The translations under genes were made by a program, and so were the position numbers. A DNA stretch of 64,000 nucleotides, taken from the NCBI RefSeq assembly GCF_058153355.1, contig NZ_CM177019.1. One strand, given 5' to 3'. Position 1 is the stretch's first letter, and every line of letters begins with the position of its first letter. Below are positions 2,874 through 63,371 of the stretch, in pieces. The notes beneath the pieces are model-generated. The model ran no database searches and had not been told where the DNA came from. It saw only the letters and a program-made list of their open reading frames with translations.

Positions 2874-3177
2874 GATTGTGCTCCTTTTGAAAGATGTCAG
2901 TAAAATTAACACACGTTGTGAATGTTATGTGTCCGGTGATGCTTTTTTACGGCAATAATGCCTACTTGAATTTGTACAGATTTGTACTACACCCTTTTAA
3001 ATAAAGCGCCAACAAAAAACGTCAACTTGCAGAATATATTCTTCGCCAACATGCCATTAAGAAACATCAAGTTCCCGGCTTGCCAATTTATTAACGCCCA
3101 TTATAGTTATTCTTGCCCTCACAAAAATTTTCATCCGTAATTACCCCCAATAAAAGTCCATTCTGGAGACGCTTAAG

Positions 3178-5154
3178 ATGCAGCTTAATCATATTGTTAA
3201 AAGTCTGCTAATAACGGGATTATTCACCACCAGTTCTTTGCCACTCCTCGCGGCGGAAGCCCCTAAAGACGCCACCGCAGCCACGCAACAAGCAAACAAT
3301 TTACTCTACAACCAGTTGCCGTTTTCTGATAACACTGACTTTACTGATGCCCATAAAGGTTTTGTTGCCCCTATCCCTCAAGACGTGATTAAGGGCGAAA
3401 AAGGAAATGTTATCTGGGATCCACAACAATACGCTTTTATTAAAGAAGGTGATAAAGCCCCTGATACGGTGAATCCAAGTTTATGGCGTCAGGCGCAACT
3501 GATAAATATCAGCGGATTATTTGAAGTGACTGAAGGTGTCTATCAGATTCGTAACCTCGATTTATCAAATATGACCATCATTGAAGGCAAAGAGGGTATT
3601 ACCATCGTTGATCCCCTTGTTTCAGCAGAAAGAGCCAAAGTGGGTATGGATCTCTATTACAAAAATCGCGACAAAAAACCGGTAGTAGCGGTTATCTACA
3701 CACACAGTCATGTCGATCACTACGGTGGTGTTCGCGGCGTAATTGATGAAGCTGACGTTAAATCAGGCAAAGTTAAAATCTACGCGCCAGCCGGATTTTT
3801 GGAGGAAGCCGTTTCCGAAAATATTATGGCTGGCAATGTGATGAGCCGACGAGCCAGTTATATGTATGGCAACTTATTGAAACCTGATGTTAAAGGCCAG
3901 GTTGGCGCGGGACTGGGAACAACCACTTCAGCAGGAACGGTCACGTTGATTGCTCCTACTAACTACATCACCAAAACCGGACAAAAAGAAACTATTGACG
4001 GGTTGACCTATGATTTCTTGATGGCGCCAGGCTCTGAAGCACCTTCTGAAATGCTGTGGTTTATTGAAGAAAAGAAACTGATCGAAACCGCCGAAGATGT
4101 TACGCATACCCTTCATAACACCTATTCGCTGCGTGGGGCTAAAATTCGCCAACCGCTGCCGTGGTCAAAATATATTAACGAAGCTCTCAATTTATGGGGA
4201 GATAAAGCCGAGATTATTCTCGCTCAACATCACTGGCCAACCTGGGGCAACGATAACGTGGTCAAACTGCTTAAAAGCCAGCGTGATTTGTATCGTTACA
4301 TCAATGATCAAACTCTGCGTATGGCAAATCAAGGGATGACCCGTGATGAAATTGCCGCAAACTTTAAACTGCCCTCTTCACTGGCTAATACCTGGGCGAA
4401 TCGCGGCTATTACGGTTCGGTAAGTCATGACGTGAAAGCAACTTACGTGCTTTATCTCGGCTGGTTTGATGGTAACCCCGCGACGCTTGATGAACTGCCA
4501 CCAGAAGAAGGCGCAAAAAAATTCGTCGAGTATATGGGCGGTGCTGATGCCATTTTACAGAAAGCCAAACAAGATTATGACCAGGGTAATTTCCGCTGGG
4601 TTGCTCAGGTTGTAAGTAAGGTGGTGTTTGCGGATCCAAACAACCAGGCAGCGAGAAATCTGGAAGCTGATGCGCTTGAGCAGTTAGGCTATCAGGCTGA
4701 ATCTGGGCCGTGGCGTAATTTTTATCTCACAGGCGCACAGGAATTGCGTAATGGCGTACAAAAATTACCAACACCAAATACTGCCAGCCCTGACACCGTG
4801 CGTGCAATGACGCCAGAGATGTTCTTTGATTATCTTGCCGTCCATATTAATGGTGAGAAAGCGGCAGATGCCAAAGCTGTACTGAATTTCGATTTTGGTG
4901 AAGATGGCGGCACCTATAAAGTGGAGCTTGAAAATGGTGTTCTCAATCATACCGATGGTGTAAAGGCTTCGGATGCTGATGCCACTATCACTCTGTCTCG
5001 TGATGTATTGAACAAAATTGTACTAAAAGAAGAGACGCTGAAAGAAGCCACGGACAAAGGAGATGTCAAAATTACTGGCAATGCGGAAAAACTCAACGAG
5101 CTGTTAGGTTATATGGATAATTTTGAATTTTGGTTCAATATAGTGACACCATAA
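3178..5154 (+). CDS. secreted alkyl/aryl-sulfatase homologue (metallo-beta-lactamase fold, YjcS/SdsA1-like); accessory gene absent from K-12 at this locus
   Basis: 658 aa; N-terminal signal peptide (MQLNHIVKSLLITGLFTTSSLPLLAAEAP); metallo-beta-lactamase metal motif THSHVDHYGG; overall length and C-terminal region consistent with alkyl sulfatase dimerisation and SCP2-like domains; GGAGA RBS upstream. Confidence 0.8.
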   Translation: MQLNHIVKSLLITGLFTTSSLPLLAAEAPKDATAATQQANNLLYNQLPFSDNTDFTDAHKGFVAPIPQDVIKGEKGNVIWDPQQYAFIKEGDKAPDTVNPSLWRQAQLINISGLFEVTEGVYQIRNLDLSNMTIIEGKEGITIVDPLVSAERAKVGMDLYYKNRDKKPVVAVIYTHSHVDHYGGVRGVIDEADVKSGKVKIYAPAGFLEEAVSENIMAGNVMSRRASYMYGNLLKPDVKGQVGAGLGTTTSAGTVTLIAPTNYITKTGQKETIDGLTYDFLMAPGSEAPSEMLWFIEEKKLIETAEDVTHTLHNTYSLRGAKIRQPLPWSKYINEALNLWGDKAEIILAQHHWPTWGNDNVVKLLKSQRDLYRYINDQTLRMANQGMTRDEIAANFKLPSSLANTWANRGYYGSVSHDVKATYVLYLGWFDGNPATLDELPPEEGAKKFVEYMGGADAILQKAKQDYDQGNFRWVAQVVSKVVFADPNNQAARNLEADALEQLGYQAESGPWRNFYLTGAQELRNGVQKLPTPNTASPDTVRAMTPEMFFDYLAVHINGEKAADAKAVLNFDFGEDGGTYKVELENGVLNHTDGVKASDADATITLSRDVLNKIVLKEETLKEATDKGDVKITGNAEKLNELLGYMDNFEFWFNIVTP

Positions 5155-5165
5155 ATTTACTGTAT

Positions 5166-5192
5166 ACCGGGCAGGTATCCTGCCCTTTTTTG
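5166..5192 (+). terminator. intrinsic terminator after sulfatase gene
   Basis: GGGCAGG-tatc-CTGCCC hairpin followed by TTTTTT, 12 nt downstream of the stop codon. Confidence 0.65.
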
Positions 5193-5200
5193 GTTAAAAA

Positions 5201-6298
5201 ATGGCTGAACAAAGAAAAACGCATCACTCGTGGAAAACCCGCCGCGATATGGTTATTCGCGGCATGACGATTAGTTTGCCATGGTTTGCTTTTATCAATG
5301 TCAGTTTTGCATTGATGATTTTGCTGCGCCGTGTTCTGTTTAATGACCTTACTCCTCCCTGGTTAAATGAAAAAAGCCTTATACATTCTATTGATATATC
5401 TGCAACGGGTATTCTGCTGATTTGCAGTGGTTTACTACTCATCCCTCGGCAAAAAACATTACCTATCCAGGTGCTATTAGTTGCCCTGAGCCTGCTATGG
5501 TCATGGTGTAGTTATCACTTTATTGCGTACTGGACGCTGCAGTTTGCTTATCCACTATGTGTATTATTAATGCTTAGTGGCGTTGTCGCACTTTATTTCC
5601 ATACCCCATCATTGCTCGCATTTGTCATTCCCTTATGGTTCACCACTCCAATAGCGAGCCTTATGCTTAATCAACAGGTTAATATTCATTTTGCTGTTAT
5701 CTGGTGTATTTTTTCACTGGCGTTATATGGTGGGCGACTCATTTTGTTACGTTGGTTTGAAGAAGCATGGGAACAAAACAGCTATAACAACCAGTTAATT
5801 AATCGCCTTGATGCATTAGCACATCGTGATCCTTTAACTGGGATAGCAAACCGACGAGCAATGAACAGTATCTTACACGACGCGATAGATAACGGCGGGT
5901 CATTTGCTCTTATTATGCTGGATGTCGATTTTTTTAAACGCTACAACGACACCTACGGGCATCCTGCTGGGGATCGTTGTCTGATACAAGTTGCCGACGC
6001 TCTACAGCATTCAACTCGCCAGTCGGAGGATGTTGTTGTCCGTTATGGTGGCGAAGAGTTTGCCATCATACTTTTTAATGCAACATTGCCGGAAGCAGAG
6101 ACGGTAGCAGCCAGAGTGAAGCAAGAACTTAAACTGGCAGCTATCCCGCATCAGGCATCTGCTGTTAATGCATTCGTTACGGTTAGTCAGGGGATTACCT
6201 GTTCAGCTCCCGCAAAAACGGCTGAACAAATTATTTCAGATGCCGACGCCGCGTTATACCGGGCGAAAGAAAGTGGGCGAAATCGATGGGAAAAATAA
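5201..6298 (+). CDS. membrane-anchored diguanylate cyclase (GGDEF domain, GGEEF active site); accessory, not one of the K-12 DGCs
   Basis: 365-aa ORF; N-terminal about 200 aa strongly hydrophobic (multiple predicted TM helices); C-terminal GGDEF domain with RYGGEEF motif, DxLTG-like HRDPLTGIANRR upstream; true start may be an internal Met (codon 17 or 22). Confidence 0.8.
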   Translation: MAEQRKTHHSWKTRRDMVIRGMTISLPWFAFINVSFALMILLRRVLFNDLTPPWLNEKSLIHSIDISATGILLICSGLLLIPRQKTLPIQVLLVALSLLWSWCSYHFIAYWTLQFAYPLCVLLMLSGVVALYFHTPSLLAFVIPLWFTTPIASLMLNQQVNIHFAVIWCIFSLALYGGRLILLRWFEEAWEQNSYNNQLINRLDALAHRDPLTGIANRRAMNSILHDAIDNGGSFALIMLDVDFFKRYNDTYGHPAGDRCLIQVADALQHSTRQSEDVVVRYGGEEFAIILFNATLPEAETVAARVKQELKLAAIPHQASAVNAFVTVSQGITCSAPAKTAEQIISDADAALYRAKESGRNRWEK

Positions 6299-6916
6299 TT
6301 AAATGATTCCATTCCTCTTTAGTATCCCTTTTAGCTTTGGTATCTGACATACAGCATCAGCGATCGCACTGATATTCGTGGCATTATCCTGAAACCATTC
6401 ATGCCCAGGCCCCCATGTGCGCATAGTGCAAAGATAACAGTCCACCAGCGTTAGTTGCTCACCAAACGCATAAGGTTCAGCGGTCAATTGTGAATTCAGC
6501 CAGATATAAAGCGATTTGCGATATTCAATAACATTCTTCTTCAACTGTTCAGGTGCGTCAGGAGCCCAACGCTCAGGGTAATCGGCGAAGGTAAACGTTG
6601 GATAGACATTAGCGACCAGCCAGACCAATAACCGTTGAAACTGCTGACGTTCGGCGTGCCCAATCGGTGGCGAAAAATTCGGGTGGCGGTCGAGAACCAT
6701 CAATGCAATCGCCGCTGTCTCCGTCATAATCTCGCCATTTTCCAGCACCATTGTCGGAATCTGGCACAACGGGTTCAGGTTTTTCAGTATCTCGCGAGAA
6801 GTTCCCTCGCGATCAAACCCACTGACATCAACGAACTGATAAGGAATATCAGCCAGTGATAGCATCAGCTCACTGATTGTAGAGCCCCATCCGGGTACGC
6901 CATACACCTTAATCAT
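6299..6916 (-). CDS. yncG: glutathione S-transferase homologue YncG
   Basis: 205-aa ORF, GST fold; adjacent to ansP as in K-12. Confidence 0.85.
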   Translation of the reverse strand: MIKVYGVPGWGSTISELMLSLADIPYQFVDVSGFDREGTSREILKNLNPLCQIPTMVLENGEIMTETAAIALMVLDRHPNFSPPIGHAERQQFQRLLVWLVANVYPTFTFADYPERWAPDAPEQLKKNVIEYRKSLYIWLNSQLTAEPYAFGEQLTLVDCYLCTMRTWGPGHEWFQDNATNISAIADAVCQIPKLKGILKRNGII

Positions 6917-26643: not shown

Positions 26644-27816
26644 ATGCGTCTGTTTTCTATTCCTCCACCCACGCTACTGGCGGGGTTTCTGGCGGTATTA
26701 ATTAGCTACGCCAGTTCAGCGGCAATAATCTGGCAAGCAGCGATGGTCGCCGGAGCCACCACTGCACAAATCTCTGGCTGGATGACGGCGCTGGGATTGG
26801 CAATGGGCGTCAGTACGCTGGCTCTGACATTGTGGTACCGTGTGCCTGTTCTCACCGCATGGTCAACGCCGGGCGCAGCTTTGCTGGTTACCGGATTGCA
26901 GGGACTGACACTTAACCAAGCCATCGGTGTTTTTATTGTCACCAACGCGTTAATAGTCCTCTGTGGTATGACGGGATTATTCGCCCGTCTGATGCGTATT
27001 ATTCCGCACTCGCTGGCAGCGGCGATGCTGGCCGGAATTTTGTTACGCTTTGGTTTACAGGCGTTTGCAAGTCTGGATGGTCAGTTTACGTTATGTGGCA
27101 GTATGTTGCTGGCGTGGCTGGCGACGAAAGCTATTGCGCCACGGTATGCGGTTATTGCGGCGATGATAGTTGGGATCGTCATCGTTATTTTACAAGGTGA
27201 CGTTGTCACAGGGGATATTGCCTTTAAACCCGTTCTCCCCGCTTATATTGCCCCTGAATTTTCGTTTGCTCACAGTCTGAGCGTTGCACTCCCCCTTTTT
27301 CTGGTGACGATGGCATCGCAAAACGCTCCAGGTATCGCAGCAATGAAAGCAGCCGGATATTCGGCTCCTGTTTCGCCGTTGATTGTATTTACTGGATTGC
27401 TGGCGCTGGTATTTTCCCCTTTCGGGGTTTATTCCGTCGGTATTGCAGCAATCACCGCAGCTATTTGTCAAAGCCCGGAAGCGCATCCGGATAAAGATCA
27501 ACGTTGGCTGGCAGCTGCCGTCGCAGGCGTTGTTTATTTGTTTGCAGGTCTGTTTGGTAGCGCCATAACTGGAATGATGGCCGCGCTGCCCGTGAGTTGG
27601 ATCCAGATGCTGGCAGGTCTGGCGCTGTTGAGTACCATTGGCGGCAGTTTGTATCAGGCGCTGCATAATGAGCGTGAGCGCGACGCGGCGGTGGTCGCAT
27701 TTCTGGTAACGGCAAGTGGACTAACGCTTGTCGGGATTGGTTCTGCGTTTTGGGGATTAATTGCCGGTGGCGTTTGTTACATGGTGTTAAATTTAATCGC
27801 TGACAGAAACCGATAA
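26644..27816 (+). CDS. ydcO: BenE-family inner-membrane transporter YdcO
   Basis: Track ORF trimmed to MRLFSIPPPTLLAG... (390 aa), highly hydrophobic. Confidence 0.8.
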   Translation: MRLFSIPPPTLLAGFLAVLISYASSAAIIWQAAMVAGATTAQISGWMTALGLAMGVSTLALTLWYRVPVLTAWSTPGAALLVTGLQGLTLNQAIGVFIVTNALIVLCGMTGLFARLMRIIPHSLAAAMLAGILLRFGLQAFASLDGQFTLCGSMLLAWLATKAIAPRYAVIAAMIVGIVIVILQGDVVTGDIAFKPVLPAYIAPEFSFAHSLSVALPLFLVTMASQNAPGIAAMKAAGYSAPVSPLIVFTGLLALVFSPFGVYSVGIAAITAAICQSPEAHPDKDQRWLAAAVAGVVYLFAGLFGSAITGMMAALPVSWIQMLAGLALLSTIGGSLYQALHNERERDAAVVAFLVTASGLTLVGIGSAFWGLIAGGVCYMVLNLIADRNR

Positions 27817-38506: not shown

Positions 38507-38784
38507 TACCGTTGTCTCTCTTCCAGGTTTACTCCTGATAGAAAGTCATCGGCATTTGACGGTAATTACTTACGACTAAAAACCTCTTTGCGTCACATTT
38601 TTACAACAATTATTGCAGAGAAGATTAATGCCATTGGATTGAAGAAAGTGAGGAATGGTTAAACTGGCTAACCCGAATGACGAAAAATTCTGGAAAACAG
38701 CACGCTATTTCGTGAAGTGATTATTTTCGTCCCTAAGGAAACCTCATAGGATGCTCACGGGTGCCTGAGACTTTCTGTTTTCAG

Positions 38785-38846
38785 GCTAACCGGGAATCAG
38801 AAAGACGAAGGCCCCGACCGATATTTCTATCAACCGAGGCCAACGA

Positions 38847-38850
<4 letters not shown>
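38785..38850 (-). ncRNA. sokB: predicted sokB antisense RNA of the hokB/sokB type I toxin-antitoxin locus (approximate position)
   Basis: Inference from hok/sok architecture: the antitoxin RNA is antisense to the mok translation-initiation region; boundaries not determinable by eye. Confidence 0.3.
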
Positions 38851-39054
<204 letters not shown>

Positions 39055-39469: not shown

Positions 39470-39534
39470 CTTCCGATGTAGGCCCGTATTCTTCGCCTGT
39501 ACCACGGGTCGGTTTTAGTACAGGCGTTTTCTTT
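39470..39534 (+). ncRNA. rydC: Hfq-dependent small RNA RydC
   Basis: Sequence CTTCCGATGTAGGCCCGTATTCTTCGCCTGTACCACGGGTCGGTTTTAGTACAGGCGTTTTCTT matches remembered RydC; ends in CCTGTAC...GTACAGG hairpin plus U tract; lies in the cybB-ydcA intergenic region as in K-12. Confidence 0.7.
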
Positions 39535-39543
39535 AAATATCCT

Positions 39544-40074
39544 TCAGGAACGTTTACGCGGCATCATGCGTAGAAGTGTGTTGTCCTTCCAGAAATAGTG
39601 GTGTGCCAGTGCAGCCGCAGCGTGCAACCCGATGACAAAATATCCCAGATTCGCCAGCGTCTCATGCCACCACTTTAAGCTATCAACCCGTTCGAAATTG
39701 GCCTCTGCTGCATAAGGCATTGTCATACCAAACGCAAACCACGGGTTGCCCCGGTTATACATCATCACCAAACCAATCACTGGCAGCGCAATAAACAGGA
39801 GATAGATCACCAAATGTCCCAAATGTGCCAGTCCCGTCATCATCGGTTTTGGTTTAGGTACAATCGGCGGAGTTGAGTATTTAAGCCTTAGCAAAAGACG
39901 AACAACCATCAGCACGAGAATTGAGATGCCACAGGAAACATGAATCATGTTGATGAGCGGCCGATCGCTACGTGGGAAGAAACCACGAAACTCCATTGCG
40001 CAATACGCTGCGATAACCAGCAAAAAGACCAGCCAGTGAATGCTGATTTGTAACCTTGAGTATTTATTTTCCAT
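39544..40074 (-). CDS. cybB: cytochrome b561
   Basis: Track ORF trimmed to MENKYSRLQISIHWLVF... (176 aa); four TM helices with conserved His ligands. Confidence 0.9.
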   Translation of the reverse strand: MENKYSRLQISIHWLVFLLVIAAYCAMEFRGFFPRSDRPLINMIHVSCGISILVLMVVRLLLRLKYSTPPIVPKPKPMMTGLAHLGHLVIYLLFIALPVIGLVMMYNRGNPWFAFGMTMPYAAEANFERVDSLKWWHETLANLGYFVIGLHAAAALAHHYFWKDNTLLRMMPRKRS

Positions 40075-40262
40075 AACATTTCCTGCTTTAAAACAATTTG
40101 CCGTTAACATAACGAGCTTTTCTTAAAATTTCATTAAATATTGTTCACCCGTTTTCAGTACGTTACGTTCCACGGCAAGAATGTAGATTGCCCATCCCGC
40201 CATCCTGGTCTAAGCCTGGAAAGGATCAATTTTCATCCGAACGTTCCTGACAGGAGAAGACC

Positions 40263-41264
40263 ATGAGTAAAGTTGGTATTAACGGTTTTGGTCGTATCGG
40301 TCGACTGGTGTTGCGTCGATTACTTGAAGTCAAAAGTAACATAGACATTGTCGCTATTAATGATCTCACTTCCCCAAAAATTCTCGCCTACCTGCTGAAA
40401 CATGATTCAAACTACGGACCGTTCCCTTGGAGCGTTGATTTTACGGAAGATTCACTTATCGTTGATGGAAAAAGTATCGCGGTTTACGCCGAAAAAGAGG
40501 CTAAAAATATTCCATGGAAAGCGAAAGGCGCAGAAATCATTGTCGAATGTACTGGCTTTTATACCTCCGCCGAGAAATCGCAGGCGCACCTTGATGCTGG
40601 TGCGAAGAAGGTGTTGATTTCCGCCCCTGCCGGTGAAATGAAAACCATCGTTTATAACGTCAATGACGACACACTGGATAGCAACGACACCATTGTTTCC
40701 GTGGCGTCATGCACCACTAACTGTCTTGCACCGATGGCCAAAGCCTTGCACGACAGTTTCGGAATAGAAGTCGGCACGATGACGACCATTCATGCCTATA
40801 CTGGCACCCAGTCACTGGTGGATGGCCCGCGAGGTAAAGATCTACGCGCTTCACGTGCAGCGGCAGAAAATATCATTCCCCACACTACAGGCGCGGCAAA
40901 AGCCATTGGTCTGGTGATCCCAGAACTGAGCGGCAAACTGAAAGGTCATGCGCAACGCGTACCCGTGAAAACAGGTTCGGTGACTGAACTGGTGTCTATT
41001 CTTGGAAAAAAAGTGACTGCCGAAGAGGTGAACAACGCGCTTAAAAACGCGACAAACAATAACGAGTCATTTGGTTATACCGATGAAGAAATAGTCTCTT
41101 CTGATATCATTGGCAGCCATTTCGGGTCGGTGTTTGATGCCACGCAAACCGAAATTACCGCCGTGGGCGATTTACAGTTGGTGAAAACGGTCGCCTGGTA
41201 TGATAACGAATATGGCTTCGTCACGCAGCTTATTCGCACCCTCGAAAAATTCGCTAAACTCTGA
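40263..41264 (+). CDS. gapC: glyceraldehyde-3-phosphate dehydrogenase C (intact; pseudogene in K-12)
   Basis: Uninterrupted 333-aa GAPDH: NAD-binding NGFGRIGR, catalytic ASCTTNCL. Confidence 0.9.
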
Positions 41265-41269
41265 CGAGC

Positions 41270-41300
41270 AAAGGCGGAGGGAAAAGCCTCCGCCTCTTTC
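41270..41300. terminator. bidirectional terminator between convergent gapC and aldA
   Basis: AGGCGGAGG-gaaaag-CCTCCGCCT hairpin plus T-rich tail. Confidence 0.65.
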
Positions 41301-41305
41301 ACTCA

Positions 41306-42745
41306 TTACGACTGTAAATAAACCACCTGGGTCTGCAGGTATTCATGCAAGCCATGTTTGCCATCTGCGCCGCCAATACCGGATTTACGCCATCCGGCGT
41401 GGAATCCTTGCATAGCTTCGAAGTTTTCACGGTTGATGTAAGTTTCACCAAACTTCAGCCCTTTAATAGCTTTCATCGCGACGTTCAGATTTTGGGTATA
41501 GAGTGATGAGGTCAGGCCGTAATCACTGTCATTAGCCATTGCGATAGCCTCTTCCAGCGTGTCAAATGCGACCACTGGCAGCACCGGGCCAAAGGTTTCC
41601 TCGTGCATAATCGACATTTCCTGACGAACATCCAGTAGCAATGTCGGCGGATAATAATATCCTTTCCCCTCTACTGCCTTGCCCCCCAACGCCACTCTCG
41701 CCCCCTCTTCGACTGCGCGCGCCACTTTTTGCTCGACCCTTTCCAGCGCCGCGGCGTTAATCAACGGCCCCATCGCAATGTCGTTGCGTTCAGCGGGGTT
41801 ACCAAATTGAACCGCCTGCATCGCTTCACCCAGCCGATTGACGAACTGATCATAAATGCCTTTCTGTACATAAACACGTTCTGCACAGTTACACACTTGC
41901 CCACTATTAATGACGCGTGAATCAACGATGGCTTTGACTGCCAGTTCAAGATCGGCATCGTCCATTACAATAGCTGGTGCTTTCCCCCCCAGCTCAAGAC
42001 ACACTTTGGTGATATTTTTCGCTGCAGTCGCCATGATCTTCTCACCAGCAGAAACACTGCCTGTCATACTGACCATTGCGACCTTTGGGTTACCCGCCAG
42101 TTCTTGCCCAACGGTTTCACCACGCCCCAGCACAAGGTTAAACACACCGCGTGGAAGGCCTATTTCATCGACAATTTTGGCAAAAGCAATCGCATTGTTT
42201 GGCGTAAATTCACTGGGTTTAATGACGATAGTATTACCGGTCAAAAGAGCGGGAGCCATTTTGCGGGCAATGAGGAAGAACGGGAAGTTCCACGGCAGAA
42301 TGCCGGTAGTCACGCCAAGCGCACGTTTAAACAGAAGAATATTTTCTCCTGGACGATCGCTTTGAATAATCTCGCCTTCATAACGCCGTGCCCACTCCGC
42401 CATGTAATCGATATAGTCCGCAGTAAAAGCCACTTCGACTTCAGACAGCTGCTGGATCTTGCCCCCTTCTTCAACAATCAGCGCACTAATTTCACTGGCG
42501 CGTTCGCGGATCCCGGCGGAGATTTTGCGCAACCAACTGGCGCGTTCAATGGCAGGCAACGCTTCCCATTCTGGTTGTGCACGTTCTGCTGCATCGATTG
42601 CCTTACGGGCATCCTCGGCCTGACCATCGGGAATGCGGGAAATGACCGCCTCTGTAGCAGGGTTTACCACATCAATCCATGCGTCTCCACGCCAGGTAAC
42701 AAACTGTCCATCTATATACATAGGATGTTGAACGGGTACTGACAT
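41306..42745 (-). CDS. aldA: lactaldehyde dehydrogenase
   Basis: 479-aa aldehyde dehydrogenase (ELGGKAP, catalytic Cys in GQVCNCAER). Confidence 0.9.
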   Translation of the reverse strand: MSVPVQHPMYIDGQFVTWRGDAWIDVVNPATEAVISRIPDGQAEDARKAIDAAERAQPEWEALPAIERASWLRKISAGIRERASEISALIVEEGGKIQQLSEVEVAFTADYIDYMAEWARRYEGEIIQSDRPGENILLFKRALGVTTGILPWNFPFFLIARKMAPALLTGNTIVIKPSEFTPNNAIAFAKIVDEIGLPRGVFNLVLGRGETVGQELAGNPKVAMVSMTGSVSAGEKIMATAAKNITKVCLELGGKAPAIVMDDADLELAVKAIVDSRVINSGQVCNCAERVYVQKGIYDQFVNRLGEAMQAVQFGNPAERNDIAMGPLINAAALERVEQKVARAVEEGARVALGGKAVEGKGYYYPPTLLLDVRQEMSIMHEETFGPVLPVVAFDTLEEAIAMANDSDYGLTSSLYTQNLNVAMKAIKGLKFGETYINRENFEAMQGFHAGWRKSGIGGADGKHGLHEYLQTQVVYLQS

Positions 42746-44155: not shown

Positions 44156-45013
44156 TTAACCAGCTATACTCGCACTCGTCGGCCCTGTTTCAATACTACC
44201 CACAATATCAATAATGTGCCCCCAGAACATATCATCATCGTTATAATATAATGAATAATCTCTATTATAATCCATAGTCAACTCAACAAGATTTATTCTG
44301 CTAACAAACATATCTTCTGTAATTTCTTCATCTTCTTCATCTTGAAGCCAGTCATTGGCCAATTCAGTTAATTGTTCTGCGGCATATTGCCTAAACTCCT
44401 GATCTTTTTGTTGCATATGACTACATAAAAATCGCAGATTTTCAAAAGCCTGTTGCCAGGTATATCTATCATTCTTATCTACTTCCATAGATACAGAAAT
44501 ATTCTGATCATTCCATTTCACTTCCCCGCTAAAACAGGAGTAGTCTTTATTAAGCACGAAAGTCCCCAATTGCTGATCTTCAACAACAACTGGTTTGCGA
44601 TATTCTTTCTGAATATTGAGCAGTTCCTCACACTGAACATGACTTTCAAGAACCTCAAGAACATAAAACCGATTATAAAACTCGGCTAACTTTCCTTCCG
44701 GCACGGTCCTGTCAATCAAATCTCGTACTCTCAGGCGATATATACCACCAGACTGCATATTAAACGGCCACGCACAGCCTTGAGTTTTCTCATTTTCTTC
44801 TGTTATCAACCAGTTGAGTCGTCCATCTCCAACGTGAATTTCTCCCGTCGTCAGACTCTTCCAGGCGAGTAAGTGTTCAACCGCTGTCCAGTAATTATCA
44901 CCGTTACTCTTACCCGCGCCACCGCCAGTATCACTAAGAAGAACGATAATTTCTTCTTCTGTATCTTTAAATGTATGACTAAATTTTTTGTATTCTTCAG
45001 AATTTAAGTCCAT
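44156..45013 (-). CDS. orphan hypothetical protein (285 aa, acidic, cytoplasmic) in low-GC islet; no family assigned
   Basis: Uninterrupted 858-nt ORF with own promoter space (45014-45163) downstream of the hrpA terminator; no signal peptide or TM segment; Asp/Glu-rich with acidic stretch QDEEDEEITEDMF; AT-rich codon usage unlike flanking core genes; no K-12 counterpart at this position. Confidence 0.65.
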   Translation of the reverse strand: MDLNSEEYKKFSHTFKDTEEEIIVLLSDTGGGAGKSNGDNYWTAVEHLLAWKSLTTGEIHVGDGRLNWLITEENEKTQGCAWPFNMQSGGIYRLRVRDLIDRTVPEGKLAEFYNRFYVLEVLESHVQCEELLNIQKEYRKPVVVEDQQLGTFVLNKDYSCFSGEVKWNDQNISVSMEVDKNDRYTWQQAFENLRFLCSHMQQKDQEFRQYAAEQLTELANDWLQDEEDEEITEDMFVSRINLVELTMDYNRDYSLYYNDDDMFWGHIIDIVGSIETGPTSASIAG

Positions 45014-57872: not shown

Positions 57873-60800
57873 TTAGAACGTTTTCTTGAAGTTCAGCATC
57901 ACGCCTTTATCGCTGATACCATCCTCTTTCCAGTGGTAAGCATCCAGATTCAGCGAACTTTCTTTGCTGCTGTACTTCACGCCGACGCTTGCCAGACTGT
58001 TGATGCCGCCGCCCTTTTGCCCATCATCGACATTAAAGTGCTGGCTGCCTGCGCCTGCCAGGCTTGCCGTGCGCTGGCTCTTCGTGTAGCTCAGGTTCGG
58101 GCCGCCTTCCAGCGTGGCGTTCGCGCTCCAGCCGTCTTTGCCTGCGTAGTCCAGCTTCAGCCCGACGATACTGTCCACCGCCGTTTCGCTGCCGCTGTTC
58201 ATGCTCAGGTTAAAGTCTCCGGCATTACGCTCCTGATAACCGCCTTCCAGCGTGTGACGCAGTTTCACACCCGCATATGGCGTGATTTTCAGCCCTTCGC
58301 GCGGTTCAAAGGTTTTCGCCCCTTCGCTGCGGAACTCCAGGTACTGCTGTTTCACGTTGGTATCCGCCGTTTTGCTAACGTCGCCGTAAGCCACCGAACG
58401 GCTGCTGTCCAGTTGGTGAATATCGTAACGCAGCGCGTTATTCCAGCTCATACCGTTGTCAAAGGACATCTGATGCTTCAGGCCAAAGAACTGGCTGTAG
58501 CCGCCTGTAACACCATTATCACCCGCTTTCTGCGCACCATCGCCGTCCAGACGGGCGATACCGTACTCCAGGCTCATGGTCTGGTTTTCGCTCAGGTCGA
58601 GGGTTTTGCGCAGCGCCAGCATGTCGTACTCGGTATTATTCCCCAGCTCTGCACGCGGATCGCCTTTCGCCACCACGTTAAATGCCAGACCGTTGCCCAT
58701 CTTCGGTGCTGCGTCCGCCAACATGCTGAAGCGGTTACTCAACACGCGGGCCTCACGAAATACCGTGGTAGCCTGGCTCCCGCTGACTTGTTTCAGCGCG
58801 CTGTTCAGCTCTGCAGTGGTGCCAACGTTCAGACTGGTATACAGCTCGTTGTTGGTGTAACCCGCATCCAGCGCTTTTGCCACGTCATTCACTGAGGCAT
58901 CCGTCGCCACATCGGTGTAGGCGTTTTTGCTCATGGTCACGTCAACGTTGCCGCTGGCGTCGGTACTGCCTGTCGCCTGCCAGACAACAGATGTCGAAGT
59001 GATCGCTTGCGCATCAGTCAGGTTGCTGCCTTGCACCACATCATCAAAGCTGACGGTTTTGTCCGCCGTTCCCGCCGCAAAATCGGTGTTGATCTCCACG
59101 CCGTTCATACTGGCGTTATTGAGCATCAGCTTACCGGCGCTACCGTCGGCGTTCGTCCCCACCACGTAACCATTGAGGTTGTTCATGCCATCGTTGCGGC
59201 TAACGGAAGAAGAATGGGTGCCGTCGTATGGCGTAATGGTGGGTTCTTCCGGCGCGGTAAAGTCGACATAGTGCACTTCCGTACCGTCTCCGCCTTCGCC
59301 ACTACCCTCCATCGCCGTGCCAGATTGTTTAATTAATCCGGAACCATTCACGCTGTCGTCAATATAAACAGTGCCGTTGTTAACAATATGACCATTGCTC
59401 CCGAGCTTGCTGAAAGCCCAGGAGTTATTGGCGTAGATATTAATCGTACCGTTGTTTTCAACCACACCATCCGCTTTCGCGTCCGATGCTAATTGCATTC
59501 CAACCATACCTGTATGCGAAGTGCCTTCGCTACCAATATTGATAGTGCCATTGTTGACCATTTTTGCGCTGCCGTGCGCATTCATGGCGATGGTATTATT
59601 TTTATCAATATTGATAGTGCCATCGTTAATTGCCCGGCTACCGGCGTTATTATTTGGCGTCGTAACCTGGCCGTTAATCACACCTGTCGTACCGTTATAC
59701 AACGTATGCCCATTACCGCTGGTAGCGATATCAGCATCACCATTCACTGTACCCCAGTTGTTGAAATGCCCAGCCCAAAGTCCGTTATCAAGAAGATCGA
59801 CAACACCACCGACCAGGTTATTAAAGGTCGCGTTTTTATCAACCGAACCACTGTGAACCGTTCCTGCGTTATTGAAAGTGGCTGCGGCAGAAAAATTCAC
59901 TTTATTGACCGTTCCATCCGCTTCGTTATTCATCACGGCAGAAGCTGAGGCCCCTTTCCAGGCTGTTACCGTCCCGGCGTTATAAAACGTACTGGCCCAT
60001 TGTTCAACAGTGTTCATGGTGCCGGAATTGTTGATAACAGAACCCGCAACGGTTGTACCTACCAACCCGGTCACCGTACCTTCGTTAGTGAACACGCCGC
60101 CATCCACAGAAACGGTTTTTGTCGTGCCCTTATTGGTGTATTCCCCACCGGTTGCGATATCAACCTCATTAATACTGCCCGTGGTTTCATTGACCAAACG
60201 GCCAAAGTCAGCCACGGTGACAGGCCCCCCGGTAACCGTACCCGCGTTGGTTACCAGGGTTTCGGCGGTTGCCGTGATATCAGTCGTACCGCCATATGAA
60301 GACAGGTTAAGCGTTTCCCCGTCAGCCGAAATAATGTCACCATTTCTCCAGCTTAATGAAACAAACCCGTCAGTCGGGTTATAGGCGTTATTGTCCTGGC
60401 ATTTCCCAAAAGTACAGATGGTTCCGTAATTAACAATAGTCCCGCTGCCATCGTTATAGAACGCCTGCCCGTTTTCGGCATTGATATTGATGATGCCAGT
60501 CTGATCATTAATCGCAGTGGCACCATTGTAAACAGCCATGCCGACCAATTTATTTGGCCCCAGCGTATCATCATCATTTTCATTTACTTCCAGATTTATA
60601 GTTCCCTGGTTAATAATAATGTTACCTGGCTTCATCGCGGCCATACCGGCACCGGAATTATAGAGTGTTATTTCACCACCCTGCTGGTTAATGGCGGTAG
60701 AATTAACGCTGGCACCAGAACTGTCTGTACCCACAGCCATCCCGACAGCATAATCTTTGGCGCTGTCATGAGCGATATTGGACGCCAGACTGGAAGTATC

Positions 60801-63371
60801 GTTTTCATCAACCCATAATGCGTCAATGAAAATCTTACCCATATTGTCAATGGTTGAATTATTGGAGGCCAGCATGCCAACACTCCCCCGGCCGTACATT
60901 TGGATCTCACCGGCAGTATTATTTGAAGCGGTGCCATTGTTGCCTGCCGTCATCCCCGTCAGACTAATGACTTGATTATTAAAAATTAAAGGGTCACTCA
61001 AACCTTGAGCGTTCAGACTATTGAAAATACGTCCCTGCGCGAGTACCTTACTGGTGATGGCACTGTTATTAACAACTCGACCACCATAGACGCTCAAATA
61101 CGCAGAACTAGCAGAGTCTGATGTATTCCCCTCTACGCCGTAGATAGAAATCGTTACGTTGTTATTATTTACAGCTAGCGACTCTTCACCAGTAGCCCTG
61201 GCAAAGCCAATATTACCCAGTTCTACATCACCATTATTTATCATCTGCGAACCGGAATTCACCAGTACAACCTGTGATGTGTCACTATTATAATGATCAA
61301 ATGTATTTATATCTTTTAGGATAAAAGTGGCGTTGCGGCCAAGTTCTAAATGGGCTCGGTTATTCAGTTGAATGATATCGCCTAATCCAAGCGGAAAAAC
61401 ACCACTGATTGTTGAATCCCCATTTAGATACAGAGTAGAGTGCCCATCGATTTTGATAACAGGCGTATCGCCATAACCATTACGTTTTAAAGCAGGTGTG
61501 GAGCCATCCTGTAGAGTATTTTCTTCGCCAGCTAAATGGATACCACCATTAATTTCGACGGTATTACCGTCACCCGACACAACCAGACCATTAATATTTT
61601 CCTGGCTGCCATCCATTTCATTATAGATACGAGAAGTGACTTCACTGTCAGCAACAACGGTAAGATTGCCATTTAATACGATATTATTGTCGTGTCCCTG
61701 CACCTGAATGCCAACAGAAGGGGTAAAAAAGTCATTTATTGAATGCTCTCCGGCCTGATTTTTATCCACCAGAATATTACCGGTAATTTCAACTTCATTG
61801 CCATCACCGGCTACATTTACCCCTGTCGCAACACTGCCGGTCACATTAAGCTCATTTGTCGCCAGCGTCATGGCGTTATTATTTCCAGAGACATCCAGAC
61901 CGGTTGAATAATCCCCTACATCCACACGGCCAGCCAGAGAAATCAGACCATCATCTCCGATGATGCGAATCCCGGTACTGAAATTATCAGCAATGATGTC
62001 CCCCACATTGATAAGGGTAGAATGATTACCCTCAATCAGAATCCCTGTCGCATTGGCCTCTGAACTACCATTACTGACGGAAATATCCCCCCTGTTAATG
62101 AACGTCGACGCATCACCACTGAGAGAAACACCCTGCGAATTTTCATCCACGACCGTTATATTTCCTTTGTTGCTGACGATCGCGCCATTACCCTCAACAT
62201 CAATACCCCGTGCAGCATTGCTAACGTATAAATCCCCTTCCTGTATAACCGTCGCATTATTACCAACGATTTTGCTGCCCGTTGAATTTTGCCCATCAAC
62301 CGTCATATGTCCTTTATTATCGGTCCTGACATCATTACCGCTAATAACGGCCCCTATTCCGCCGTTATTGACAGTGGAGTCGCCAGTGTTATTTAAGATT
62401 GTACGATCGCCATTGACGATAACCGCCGTGCCAGCATCGACCACCGTCTGACCGTTATTATTGATGGTTATATTATCGCCGGTCAGGATACCGACCACCG
62501 AACCTTCACCGACAGCCTCTGTTTTACCCTCGTTTGTCAGCGCAATGTTGTTACCATTAATCATCATCACCGTGCCGCCATTCAGGGCCGTGTTACCGCC
62601 CTGGTCAGTGATAATCGCATCATTAACGGTAATTATTCTGCCCGTTGTTCCATCAGACACGACACTGGCTAACTGTGTGACGTGGAGTTTACCTTCGTCA
62701 TCGTAGCGCCATTCCATATCACCTGTGGTACTCACACCACTAAACATGGCGGTATGAGTCTCTTCATGGTTTTCCCACTCAGTCACAATGGTTTTTCGGC
62801 CATCTTTTGCCGTCAGCGTGTAGCTACCATCTTCATTTTGGGTATAAGTGAACGTCGCCCCGCGAATCTTCAGGGTTTGCGCGTCCTCGTCCCATGTCAC
62901 ATTGTTATCAAAGACAACGGGTTCTGTTCTCGGGGGGTCAACATCATCACCGCTATTGTCGGGTGGAGTAACATTACCGCCGTTATCTGGCTTTACAGGT
63001 ATACCTGAATCTTCATCACTGGGAACGGGTAGCGGTAGAGGGCCATTATCATCTGGCGGTATGGGCTGGGGAAAAGAAGAGTGAGCAGAATGATCATTGT
63101 CATGAGACAATTCAATCACTGCGAGTGTTGCCAGTACCGCCGTGGCACCTAATGCCAGTAACGAGCTGAAACCATTATTTGTAACAACAGCACATTTTTC
63201 TGGCACTGTTTTCAACTTCGTTGACGGTCGGGCGTGCCCTTCTGACTGACATGTCATTTGAGAGCTTCTGCGCATACTGTCTGCACTCTCGCCTTCTGTT
63301 ATTTCCGCCCCCCAGCTTTGGCCACTTAACGCTATAGCGATACACGCTGATAATAACGTTTTCTTTTGCAT
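57873..63371 (-). CDS. ydbA: large AIDA-I/Ag43-type autotransporter adhesin YdbA, apparently intact
   Basis: 1832-aa uninterrupted ORF; signal peptide MQKKTLLSACIAIALSGQSWGA; long Gly/Asn/Thr-rich passenger with degenerate beta-helix repeats; C-terminal beta-barrel ending ...LNFKKTF; no IS sequence inside. Confidence 0.85.
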   Translation of the reverse strand: MQKKTLLSACIAIALSGQSWGAEITEGESADSMRRSSQMTCQSEGHARPSTKLKTVPEKCAVVTNNGFSSLLALGATAVLATLAVIELSHDNDHSAHSSFPQPIPPDDNGPLPLPVPSDEDSGIPVKPDNGGNVTPPDNSGDDVDPPRTEPVVFDNNVTWDEDAQTLKIRGATFTYTQNEDGSYTLTAKDGRKTIVTEWENHEETHTAMFSGVSTTGDMEWRYDDEGKLHVTQLASVVSDGTTGRIITVNDAIITDQGGNTALNGGTVMMINGNNIALTNEGKTEAVGEGSVVGILTGDNITINNNGQTVVDAGTAVIVNGDRTILNNTGDSTVNNGGIGAVISGNDVRTDNKGHMTVDGQNSTGSKIVGNNATVIQEGDLYVSNAARGIDVEGNGAIVSNKGNITVVDENSQGVSLSGDASTFINRGDISVSNGSSEANATGILIEGNHSTLINVGDIIADNFSTGIRIIGDDGLISLAGRVDVGDYSTGLDVSGNNNAMTLATNELNVTGSVATGVNVAGDGNEVEITGNILVDKNQAGEHSINDFFTPSVGIQVQGHDNNIVLNGNLTVVADSEVTSRIYNEMDGSQENINGLVVSGDGNTVEINGGIHLAGEENTLQDGSTPALKRNGYGDTPVIKIDGHSTLYLNGDSTISGVFPLGLGDIIQLNNRAHLELGRNATFILKDINTFDHYNSDTSQVVLVNSGSQMINNGDVELGNIGFARATGEESLAVNNNNVTISIYGVEGNTSDSASSAYLSVYGGRVVNNSAITSKVLAQGRIFNSLNAQGLSDPLIFNNQVISLTGMTAGNNGTASNNTAGEIQMYGRGSVGMLASNNSTIDNMGKIFIDALWVDENDTSSLASNIAHDSAKDYAVGMAVGTDSSGASVNSTAINQQGGEITLYNSGAGMAAMKPGNIIINQGTINLEVNENDDDTLGPNKLVGMAVYNGATAINDQTGIININAENGQAFYNDGSGTIVNYGTICTFGKCQDNNAYNPTDGFVSLSWRNGDIISADGETLNLSSYGGTTDITATAETLVTNAGTVTGGPVTVADFGRLVNETTGSINEVDIATGGEYTNKGTTKTVSVDGGVFTNEGTVTGLVGTTVAGSVINNSGTMNTVEQWASTFYNAGTVTAWKGASASAVMNNEADGTVNKVNFSAAATFNNAGTVHSGSVDKNATFNNLVGGVVDLLDNGLWAGHFNNWGTVNGDADIATSGNGHTLYNGTTGVINGQVTTPNNNAGSRAINDGTINIDKNNTIAMNAHGSAKMVNNGTINIGSEGTSHTGMVGMQLASDAKADGVVENNGTINIYANNSWAFSKLGSNGHIVNNGTVYIDDSVNGSGLIKQSGTAMEGSGEGGDGTEVHYVDFTAPEEPTITPYDGTHSSSVSRNDGMNNLNGYVVGTNADGSAGKLMLNNASMNGVEINTDFAAGTADKTVSFDDVVQGSNLTDAQAITSTSVVWQATGSTDASGNVDVTMSKNAYTDVATDASVNDVAKALDAGYTNNELYTSLNVGTTAELNSALKQVSGSQATTVFREARVLSNRFSMLADAAPKMGNGLAFNVVAKGDPRAELGNNTEYDMLALRKTLDLSENQTMSLEYGIARLDGDGAQKAGDNGVTGGYSQFFGLKHQMSFDNGMSWNNALRYDIHQLDSSRSVAYGDVSKTADTNVKQQYLEFRSEGAKTFEPREGLKITPYAGVKLRHTLEGGYQERNAGDFNLSMNSGSETAVDSIVGLKLDYAGKDGWSANATLEGGPNLSYTKSQRTASLAGAGSQHFNVDDGQKGGGINSLASVGVKYSSKESSLNLDAYHWKEDGISDKGVMLNFKKTF

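Follow-up and report, generated by a model that had tools for sequence, protein, structure and literature searches.

The window, that is, the whole stretch of 64,000 nucleotides of DNA that was analysed, contains an uninterrupted ORF of 333 aa at positions 40263-41264 (+ strand), with an ATG start and a TGA stop, which corresponds to an undamaged gapC. A Shine-Dalgarno sequence (AGGAG, 40252-40256, + strand), read from the sequence, is located 6 nt 5' of the ATG. The divergent neighbour is the ORF of cybB (cytochrome b561/superoxide oxidase; 39544-40074, - strand), and a cybB gene of 531 nt is annotated at the equivalent place in K-12, Sakai and Z0117EC0005. The convergent neighbour is the ORF of aldA (aldehyde dehydrogenase A, 479 aa; 41306-42745, - strand), a gene that is also annotated in all matching genomes. 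The order trg, hokB/sok, ydcA, RydC, cybB, gapC, aldA, ydcF and hrpA is the same as that found at 1.487-1.494 Mb in K-12, although reversed, and the order trg-hokB-ydcA-cybB-gapC-aldA-ydcF-hrpA also matched Sakai and Z0117EC0005. When a 1.3-kb query around gapC was used, matches were found in 5,417 of 5,426 complete E. coli genomes, and among the matches listed the features under full-length matches were 'gap/gapC' and 'aldA' in every row. Based on the gene order and these annotated matches, the window gene could therefore be identified as the gapC orthologue. Two RNA genes that are present in K-12 too scored above the Rfam gathering score in the window: the sok antitoxin RNA of the hokB locus (38759-38910, 114 bits) and the RydC sRNA (39470-39533, 90.5 bits).

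The divergent intergenic region between cybB and gapC (188 nt; 40075-40262) presumably contains the promoters of the two genes. Conservation of this region was strong in E. coli and E. albertii, conserved blocks could also be observed in Citrobacter, and the Shine-Dalgarno block CCTGACAGGAGAA was identical across E. coli, E. albertii and Citrobacter. A simple consensus scan of the region revealed no sigma-70-like promoter above threshold. A ChIP-seq peak of sigma-S RNA polymerase in the gapC-cybB interval of K-12 is reported in PMC4447067. Downstream, the convergent stop codons of gapC and aldA are separated by a 41-nt spacer, in which RNA folding placed a GC-rich 9-bp hairpin (41272-41295; core GGCGGAGG/CCTCCGCC). 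Its dG was -20.7 kcal/mol on the + strand and -25.3 kcal/mol on the - strand, with z scores of about -4.3 to -4.4, and none of 200 shuffles equalled it. The hairpin is kept in E. coli and also in E. albertii, where aldA is absent. Its T-tails, TCTTTCAC (+) and TTTGCTCG (-), are short (4 T in 8), and the consensus terminator scan missed the hairpin because the T-tail was below threshold. It is likely that this hairpin serves as a bidirectional terminator for gapC and aldA. An earlier note on this DNA, made from the sequence alone, had described a clean terminator shared with aldA; a strong and conserved hairpin does lie between both stops, but 'clean' was an overstatement given the modest U-tract.

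The predicted GapC protein scored 447 bits against TIGR01534, the equivalog model of GAPDH-I (EC 1.2.1.12; curated cutoff 367.2 bits, E=3.9e-134), with a match covering profile positions 1-330 of 330. Two Pfam domains were identified: the NAD-binding Rossmann domain Gp_dh_N (PF00044, residues 3-102, 122.6 bits) and the catalytic domain Gp_dh_C (PF02800, residues 155-313, 195.9 bits). The NAD site contains the Rossmann motif G8-F-G-R-I-G13 and D34, the active site contains S149-C150-T151-T152-N153 of the SCTTNC motif and the catalytic H177, and the phosphate-site residues are T180, T182, R195 and R232. All of these residues were invariant in an alignment of GapC proteins from E. coli (Sakai and Nissle), E. 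albertii, Citrobacter and Klebsiella with K-12 GapA. Considering the TIGR01534 score, the Pfam domains and the identity at 329 of 333 positions to PDB 7C5F (see below), the ORF is not a chance reading frame. Thus, the full-length 333-aa GAPDH with NAD-binding and catalytic-Cys motifs that had been noticed before was confirmed by the ORF, TIGR01534, Pfam and residue alignment. It should be noted that in several public gene calls (P0002, P0003 and P0005-P0007), which are 99% identical, GapC is extended by 50 residues at the N-terminus to 383 aa. They probably represent a start-site miscall in those assemblies, and such an extension is impossible in the window because an in-frame stop lies upstream of gapC.

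E. coli possesses gapA, which encodes the housekeeping glycolytic GAPDH, and it is because of this established gene that the window gapC may be called a 'second' GAPDH. K-12 GapA (b1779) and GapC catalyse the same reaction with the same catalytic residues and agree in their fold and in both domains, whereas the two are only 46% identical and are encoded at different loci. The window protein did not qualify as a member of the GapA-type model NF011954 (300 bits versus a cutoff of 662), and in a ranking of PDB chains other bacterial GAPDHs were closer to it than the GapA-type chains were. No GAPDH homologue besides gapC was found in the 64-kb window, and gapA is located outside it.

In K-12, gapC (b4493, formerly gapC_1/gapC_2) has 1001 nt and is annotated as a pseudogene. 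Nucleotide alignment with the window and Sakai copies located two lesions in it: a nonsense mutation at codon 39 (Lys39, AAA to TAA), and the loss of 1 nt in a run of seven A at gene positions 738-744, which corresponds to 41000-41006 in the window. In contrast with K-12, the window copy has neither K39* nor the A7-to-A6 frameshift, nor R18G. It aligned free of gaps and stops with the copies of Sakai, Nissle and 15 other E. coli strains. Full-length nucleotide identity was 95.1-99.7% to 20 E. coli gapC copies, of which only three showed a gap, namely the 1-nt deletion of the K-12 type, and 86.6% to E. albertii. The observation that gapC is undamaged here and is a pseudogene in K-12 was therefore borne out by nucleotide alignments with K-12, Sakai and Z0117EC0005, and it stands because a frameshift or stop, which was sought in the window gene at the nucleotide level, was not present. 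The accompanying statement that K-12 gapC is split by a frameshift was right about the frameshift but incomplete, as the K39* nonsense codon is also there.

The occurrence of these lesions was examined in 5,426 complete E. coli genomes using short allele queries, in which each 28-nt seed had to cover the diagnostic position. The K-12 stop allele at codon 39 was found in at least 1,155 genomes, the K-12 A6 frameshift in at least 1,050 and the Lys39 allele in at least 3,881; these counts are lower bounds because flank polymorphism blocks seeding in the remaining genomes. The wild-type count was taken from the codon-39 query, and a 48-nt query for the wild-type A7 run was set aside, as it yielded no match though the string is present in Sakai, probably due to the low-complexity filter of BLAST. 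When 17 genomes were sampled systematically along the ranking of matches to the 1.3-kb query, 13 had an undamaged gapC and 4 had a disrupted one (one with the stop only, two with both stop and frameshift, and one with an IS1A-associated deletion). Undamaged gapC is the majority and ancestral state, present in approximately three quarters of E. coli genomes. Among the matches listed, about one-third of the carriers of K-12 alleles looked like K-12 laboratory derivatives, and the remaining two-thirds or so came from humans, pigs, cattle, poultry, a cat and river water. Some of the literature words the K-12 gapC lesions as products of laboratory domestication. Our census essentially established them as a natural polymorphism from a wild clade, carried by about a fifth of the sequenced complete genomes. 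A wider account, in which these wild-clade lesions were accompanied by repeated loss of gapC in some host-associated lineages and by its retention elsewhere, including the deep-branching lineage of the window, is tentative, and we would give it somewhat less than an even chance. That loss of gapC is tied to host association is a speculation, which would agree with the role that has been proposed for gapC outside the host.

Two individual strains provided additional observations. E. coli 63-2 (locus L010, 463-1464) has the K39* stop without the A6 frameshift, and its gapC haplotype is 3 nt from the undamaged allele of G47-1 and 6 nt from K-12. Either the stop is older than the frameshift or it moved between backgrounds by recombination, and this strain suggests that the two lesions had separate histories. 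In E. coli SCPM-O-B-7615 (locus L018, 3163-5340), an IS1A adjoins a deletion through which the 3' part of gapC was lost together with the 3' end of aldA; this is an independent inactivation of gapC.

Comparison with related copies provided information on the evolutionary history of the gene. Sakai gapC (O157:H7, ECs_2022, UniProt P58072; 1002 nt) occupies the same cybB/aldA locus and showed 95.1% nucleotide and 98% protein identity to the window gene, the two proteins being different at five residues (I29V, N132K, S140G, N262Q and N265T, from window to Sakai). In other species, the protein identity was 97% in E. albertii, about 90% in Citrobacter, 89% in Trabulsiella and 88% in the Klebsiella oxytoca group. 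The gene order is cybB-gapC-aldA-ydcF-hrpA in Citrobacter, gapC-aldA-ydcF in Klebsiella and cybB-gapC-ydcF, without aldA, in E. albertii. The dN/dS ratio of gapC was 0.038 versus Sakai, 0.033 versus Nissle and 0.047 versus a repaired K-12 sequence (dS 0.16-0.21), in a similar range to its neighbours aldA (0.025-0.033) and cybB (0.075-0.091). Values of 0.03-0.05 at a dS of about 0.2 therefore indicated long-term purifying selection on gapC and, combined with the synteny in Citrobacter and Klebsiella, that gapC is an old, selected resident gene. Lateral acquisition of gapC is stated in PMC1796617. A recent lateral gain was considered and rejected here, since the synteny and the 88-90% protein identity in Citrobacter and Klebsiella imply long residence.

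With regard to function, the window GapC was compared with EcGAPDH1 (PDB 7C5F; 7C5G-7C5R series), which shares 329 of 333 residues and the C150/H177 numbering with the window GapC. The four substitutions are located at positions 29, 140, 262 and 265 (I29, S140, N262 and N265 in the window protein); S140 is common to E. albertii and N265 to Nissle. The 7C5F chain also carries 19 extra N-terminal residues that have no counterpart in the window protein. The 7C5F sequence is that of the common E. coli gapC allele WP_000048667.1. Text searches of PMC8615399 returned no occurrence of either 'gapC' or 'gapA'; judged by its sequence, the published 'EcGAPDH1' is the gapC product and not the housekeeping GapA. 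EcGAPDH1 has been reported as an active GAPDH with a Km of 0.73 mM for G3P (Zhang et al., 2021, PMC8615399). It uses G3P and NAD, and its crystals contained bound G3P, NAD and BPG-forming intermediates, whereas C150S or H177A reduced its activity about 10^4-fold (PMC8615399). The suggestion in the earlier note that the strain has a second functional GAPDH thus appears to be supported as to catalytic competence, in view of this near-identical active enzyme and a dN/dS of about 0.04. As for expression, PMC2949598 and PMC1796617 quote Espinosa-Urgel and Kolter (1998) for an undamaged gapC in isolates from the environment and for its preferential expression in fresh water, and gapC transcripts that depend on CsrA were detected in EPEC (PMC6333774). 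The window copy is presumably expressed and would add GAPDH activity in its host strain.

On the basis of these results, our preferred reading, to which we assign a probability of approximately 0.88, is that the ORF represents chromosomal gapC in its ancestral, undamaged form, encoding a type I, NAD-dependent phosphorylating GAPDH that is a working isozyme alongside GapA. By homology, Cys150 would attack glyceraldehyde-3-phosphate to form a thiohemiacetal, with His177 acting as the base; hydride would be passed to NAD+, and phosphate would then attack the thioacyl intermediate to give 1,3-bisphosphoglycerate. The gene would be monocistronic, transcribed divergently from cybB and terminating at the hairpin common with the convergent aldA. 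GapC would be a conditionally used isozyme beside GapA, and some lineages, including that of K-12, would have lost its gene.

Several other readings should be weighed against this one. The gene might be cryptic, that is, its ORF might be whole but silent, making no contribution and decaying towards the pseudogene state of K-12. Loss of gapC is indeed recurrent and tolerated, which makes the gene dispensable in nature: K-12-type lesions are found in at least 1,155 genomes by the stop and in at least 1,050 by the frameshift, and one IS1-linked 3' deletion is present in another strain. The lack of a consensus sigma-70 promoter in the scan points in the same direction. However, purifying selection on gapC is as strong as that on aldA (dN/dS 0.03-0.05), conservation of the upstream region and the Shine-Dalgarno sequence extends to E. 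albertii and Citrobacter, the gene holds its syntenic position across genera, and its expression is described in the literature (PMC1796617/PMC2949598, PMC6333774 and PMC4447067). A silent gapC therefore appears improbable.

The possibility that a GAPDH-fold enzyme has another job, as an Epd/GapB-like E4P dehydrogenase, an arsenate-resistance GAPDH or an NADP-dependent gluconeogenic GAPDH, is even less probable. E. coli does provide a precedent for it in Epd (GapB), a GAPDH paralogue that acts on another substrate, and the window protein gave sub-threshold matches to the Epd and ArsJ-associated models. Its scores were nevertheless far below the cutoffs of the Epd models (277 bits versus 530.55 for TIGR01532 and 281 versus 539 for NF010058) and of the model of ArsJ-associated GAPDH, NF033735 (308 versus 450), none of which accepted it, whereas TIGR01534 did. 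No arsJ gene was found in the neighbourhood of gapC, whose flanking genes are cybB and aldA. Asp34, the residue tied to NAD preference in GAPDHs, is conserved. In addition, the near-identical EcGAPDH1 turns over G3P with NAD (PMC8615399). The remaining reading, that gapC looks undamaged only through an assembly artefact such as a miscounted A7 homopolymer, has almost no probability left. The K-12 frameshift sits in precisely this run, and homopolymers are error-prone on some sequencing platforms, but A7 is common to all undamaged strains sampled, codon 39 is likewise wild type in the window, and an identical 333-aa GapC was called in 89 blocks of public assemblies, among them a separate assembly (the Logan assembly of SRR8656992) that is 99.995% identical to the window over 21 kb. 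An undamaged, working gapC thus remains the reading that we prefer.

The host of the window is more unusual than its gapC. The whole window (1-64000) was 92-96.5% identical to K-12 MG1655, and the hrpA segment 91.9-93.9%. For the 24 kb around gapC (28000-52000), the best identity among 5,426 complete RefSeq E. coli genomes was 98.1-98.2%, and most genomes reached 96.3% or less. The gapC allele group is rare and deep-branching, with at least 99% identity in only 16 of 5,417 genomes. The low identity to complete genomes and the rare gapC allele therefore place the strain outside the commonly sequenced phylogroups; the host belongs to a deep-branching E. coli-like lineage, which may be a cryptic clade. 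It had been proposed that an intact gapC marks the strain as non-K-12. This is true, but gapC is a weak marker because the undamaged gene is the majority state, and the strain is set apart from K-12 much more convincingly by the 92-96.5% identity along the whole window.

Some other differences from K-12 were observed in the window. An uninterrupted 1832-aa ORF with a BigA/YdbA N-terminal domain and beta-sandwich domains is located at 57873-63371 (- strand); its K-12 counterpart, ydbA, is a pseudogene interrupted by IS2D and IS30C, and this ORF may be a second K-12 pseudogene that is undamaged here. A 285-aa ORF with DUF7021 and DUF2262 (44156-45013, - strand) lies inside a 1.3-kb insert between ydcF and hrpA that is absent from K-12, and the same gene occupies this position in E. 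albertii and in some related assemblies. A 658-aa alkyl sulfatase of the metallo-beta-lactamase fold (3178-5154, + strand) and a 365-aa MASE5-GGDEF diguanylate cyclase (5201-6298, + strand) occupy a segment (2963-6300) in whose place K-12 carries the rhsE-ydcD-yncI-ydcC remnants. Two K-12 segments are absent from the window, namely IS609 (1503161-1504908) and about 445 bp comprising hicA and the beginning of hicB (1509241-1509686); the corresponding window junctions are at 27815/27816 and 23479.

Taken together, the undamaged gapC in this strain is a correct but ordinary observation of an already described gene in its usual state. That gapC is whole in natural E. coli and broken in K-12 has been in print since 1996-1998, and as undamaged gapC is annotated in thousands of genomes, the finding itself matters little. 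Our census amends a common simplification, in that K-12 carries both a nonsense mutation and a frameshift and both are common to many wild isolates. In addition, the PDB entries of 'EcGAPDH1' should be read as the product of gapC and not as GapA. When metabolic models or strain typing are based on K-12, it should be taken into account that most wild strains would have a second GAPDH isozyme.
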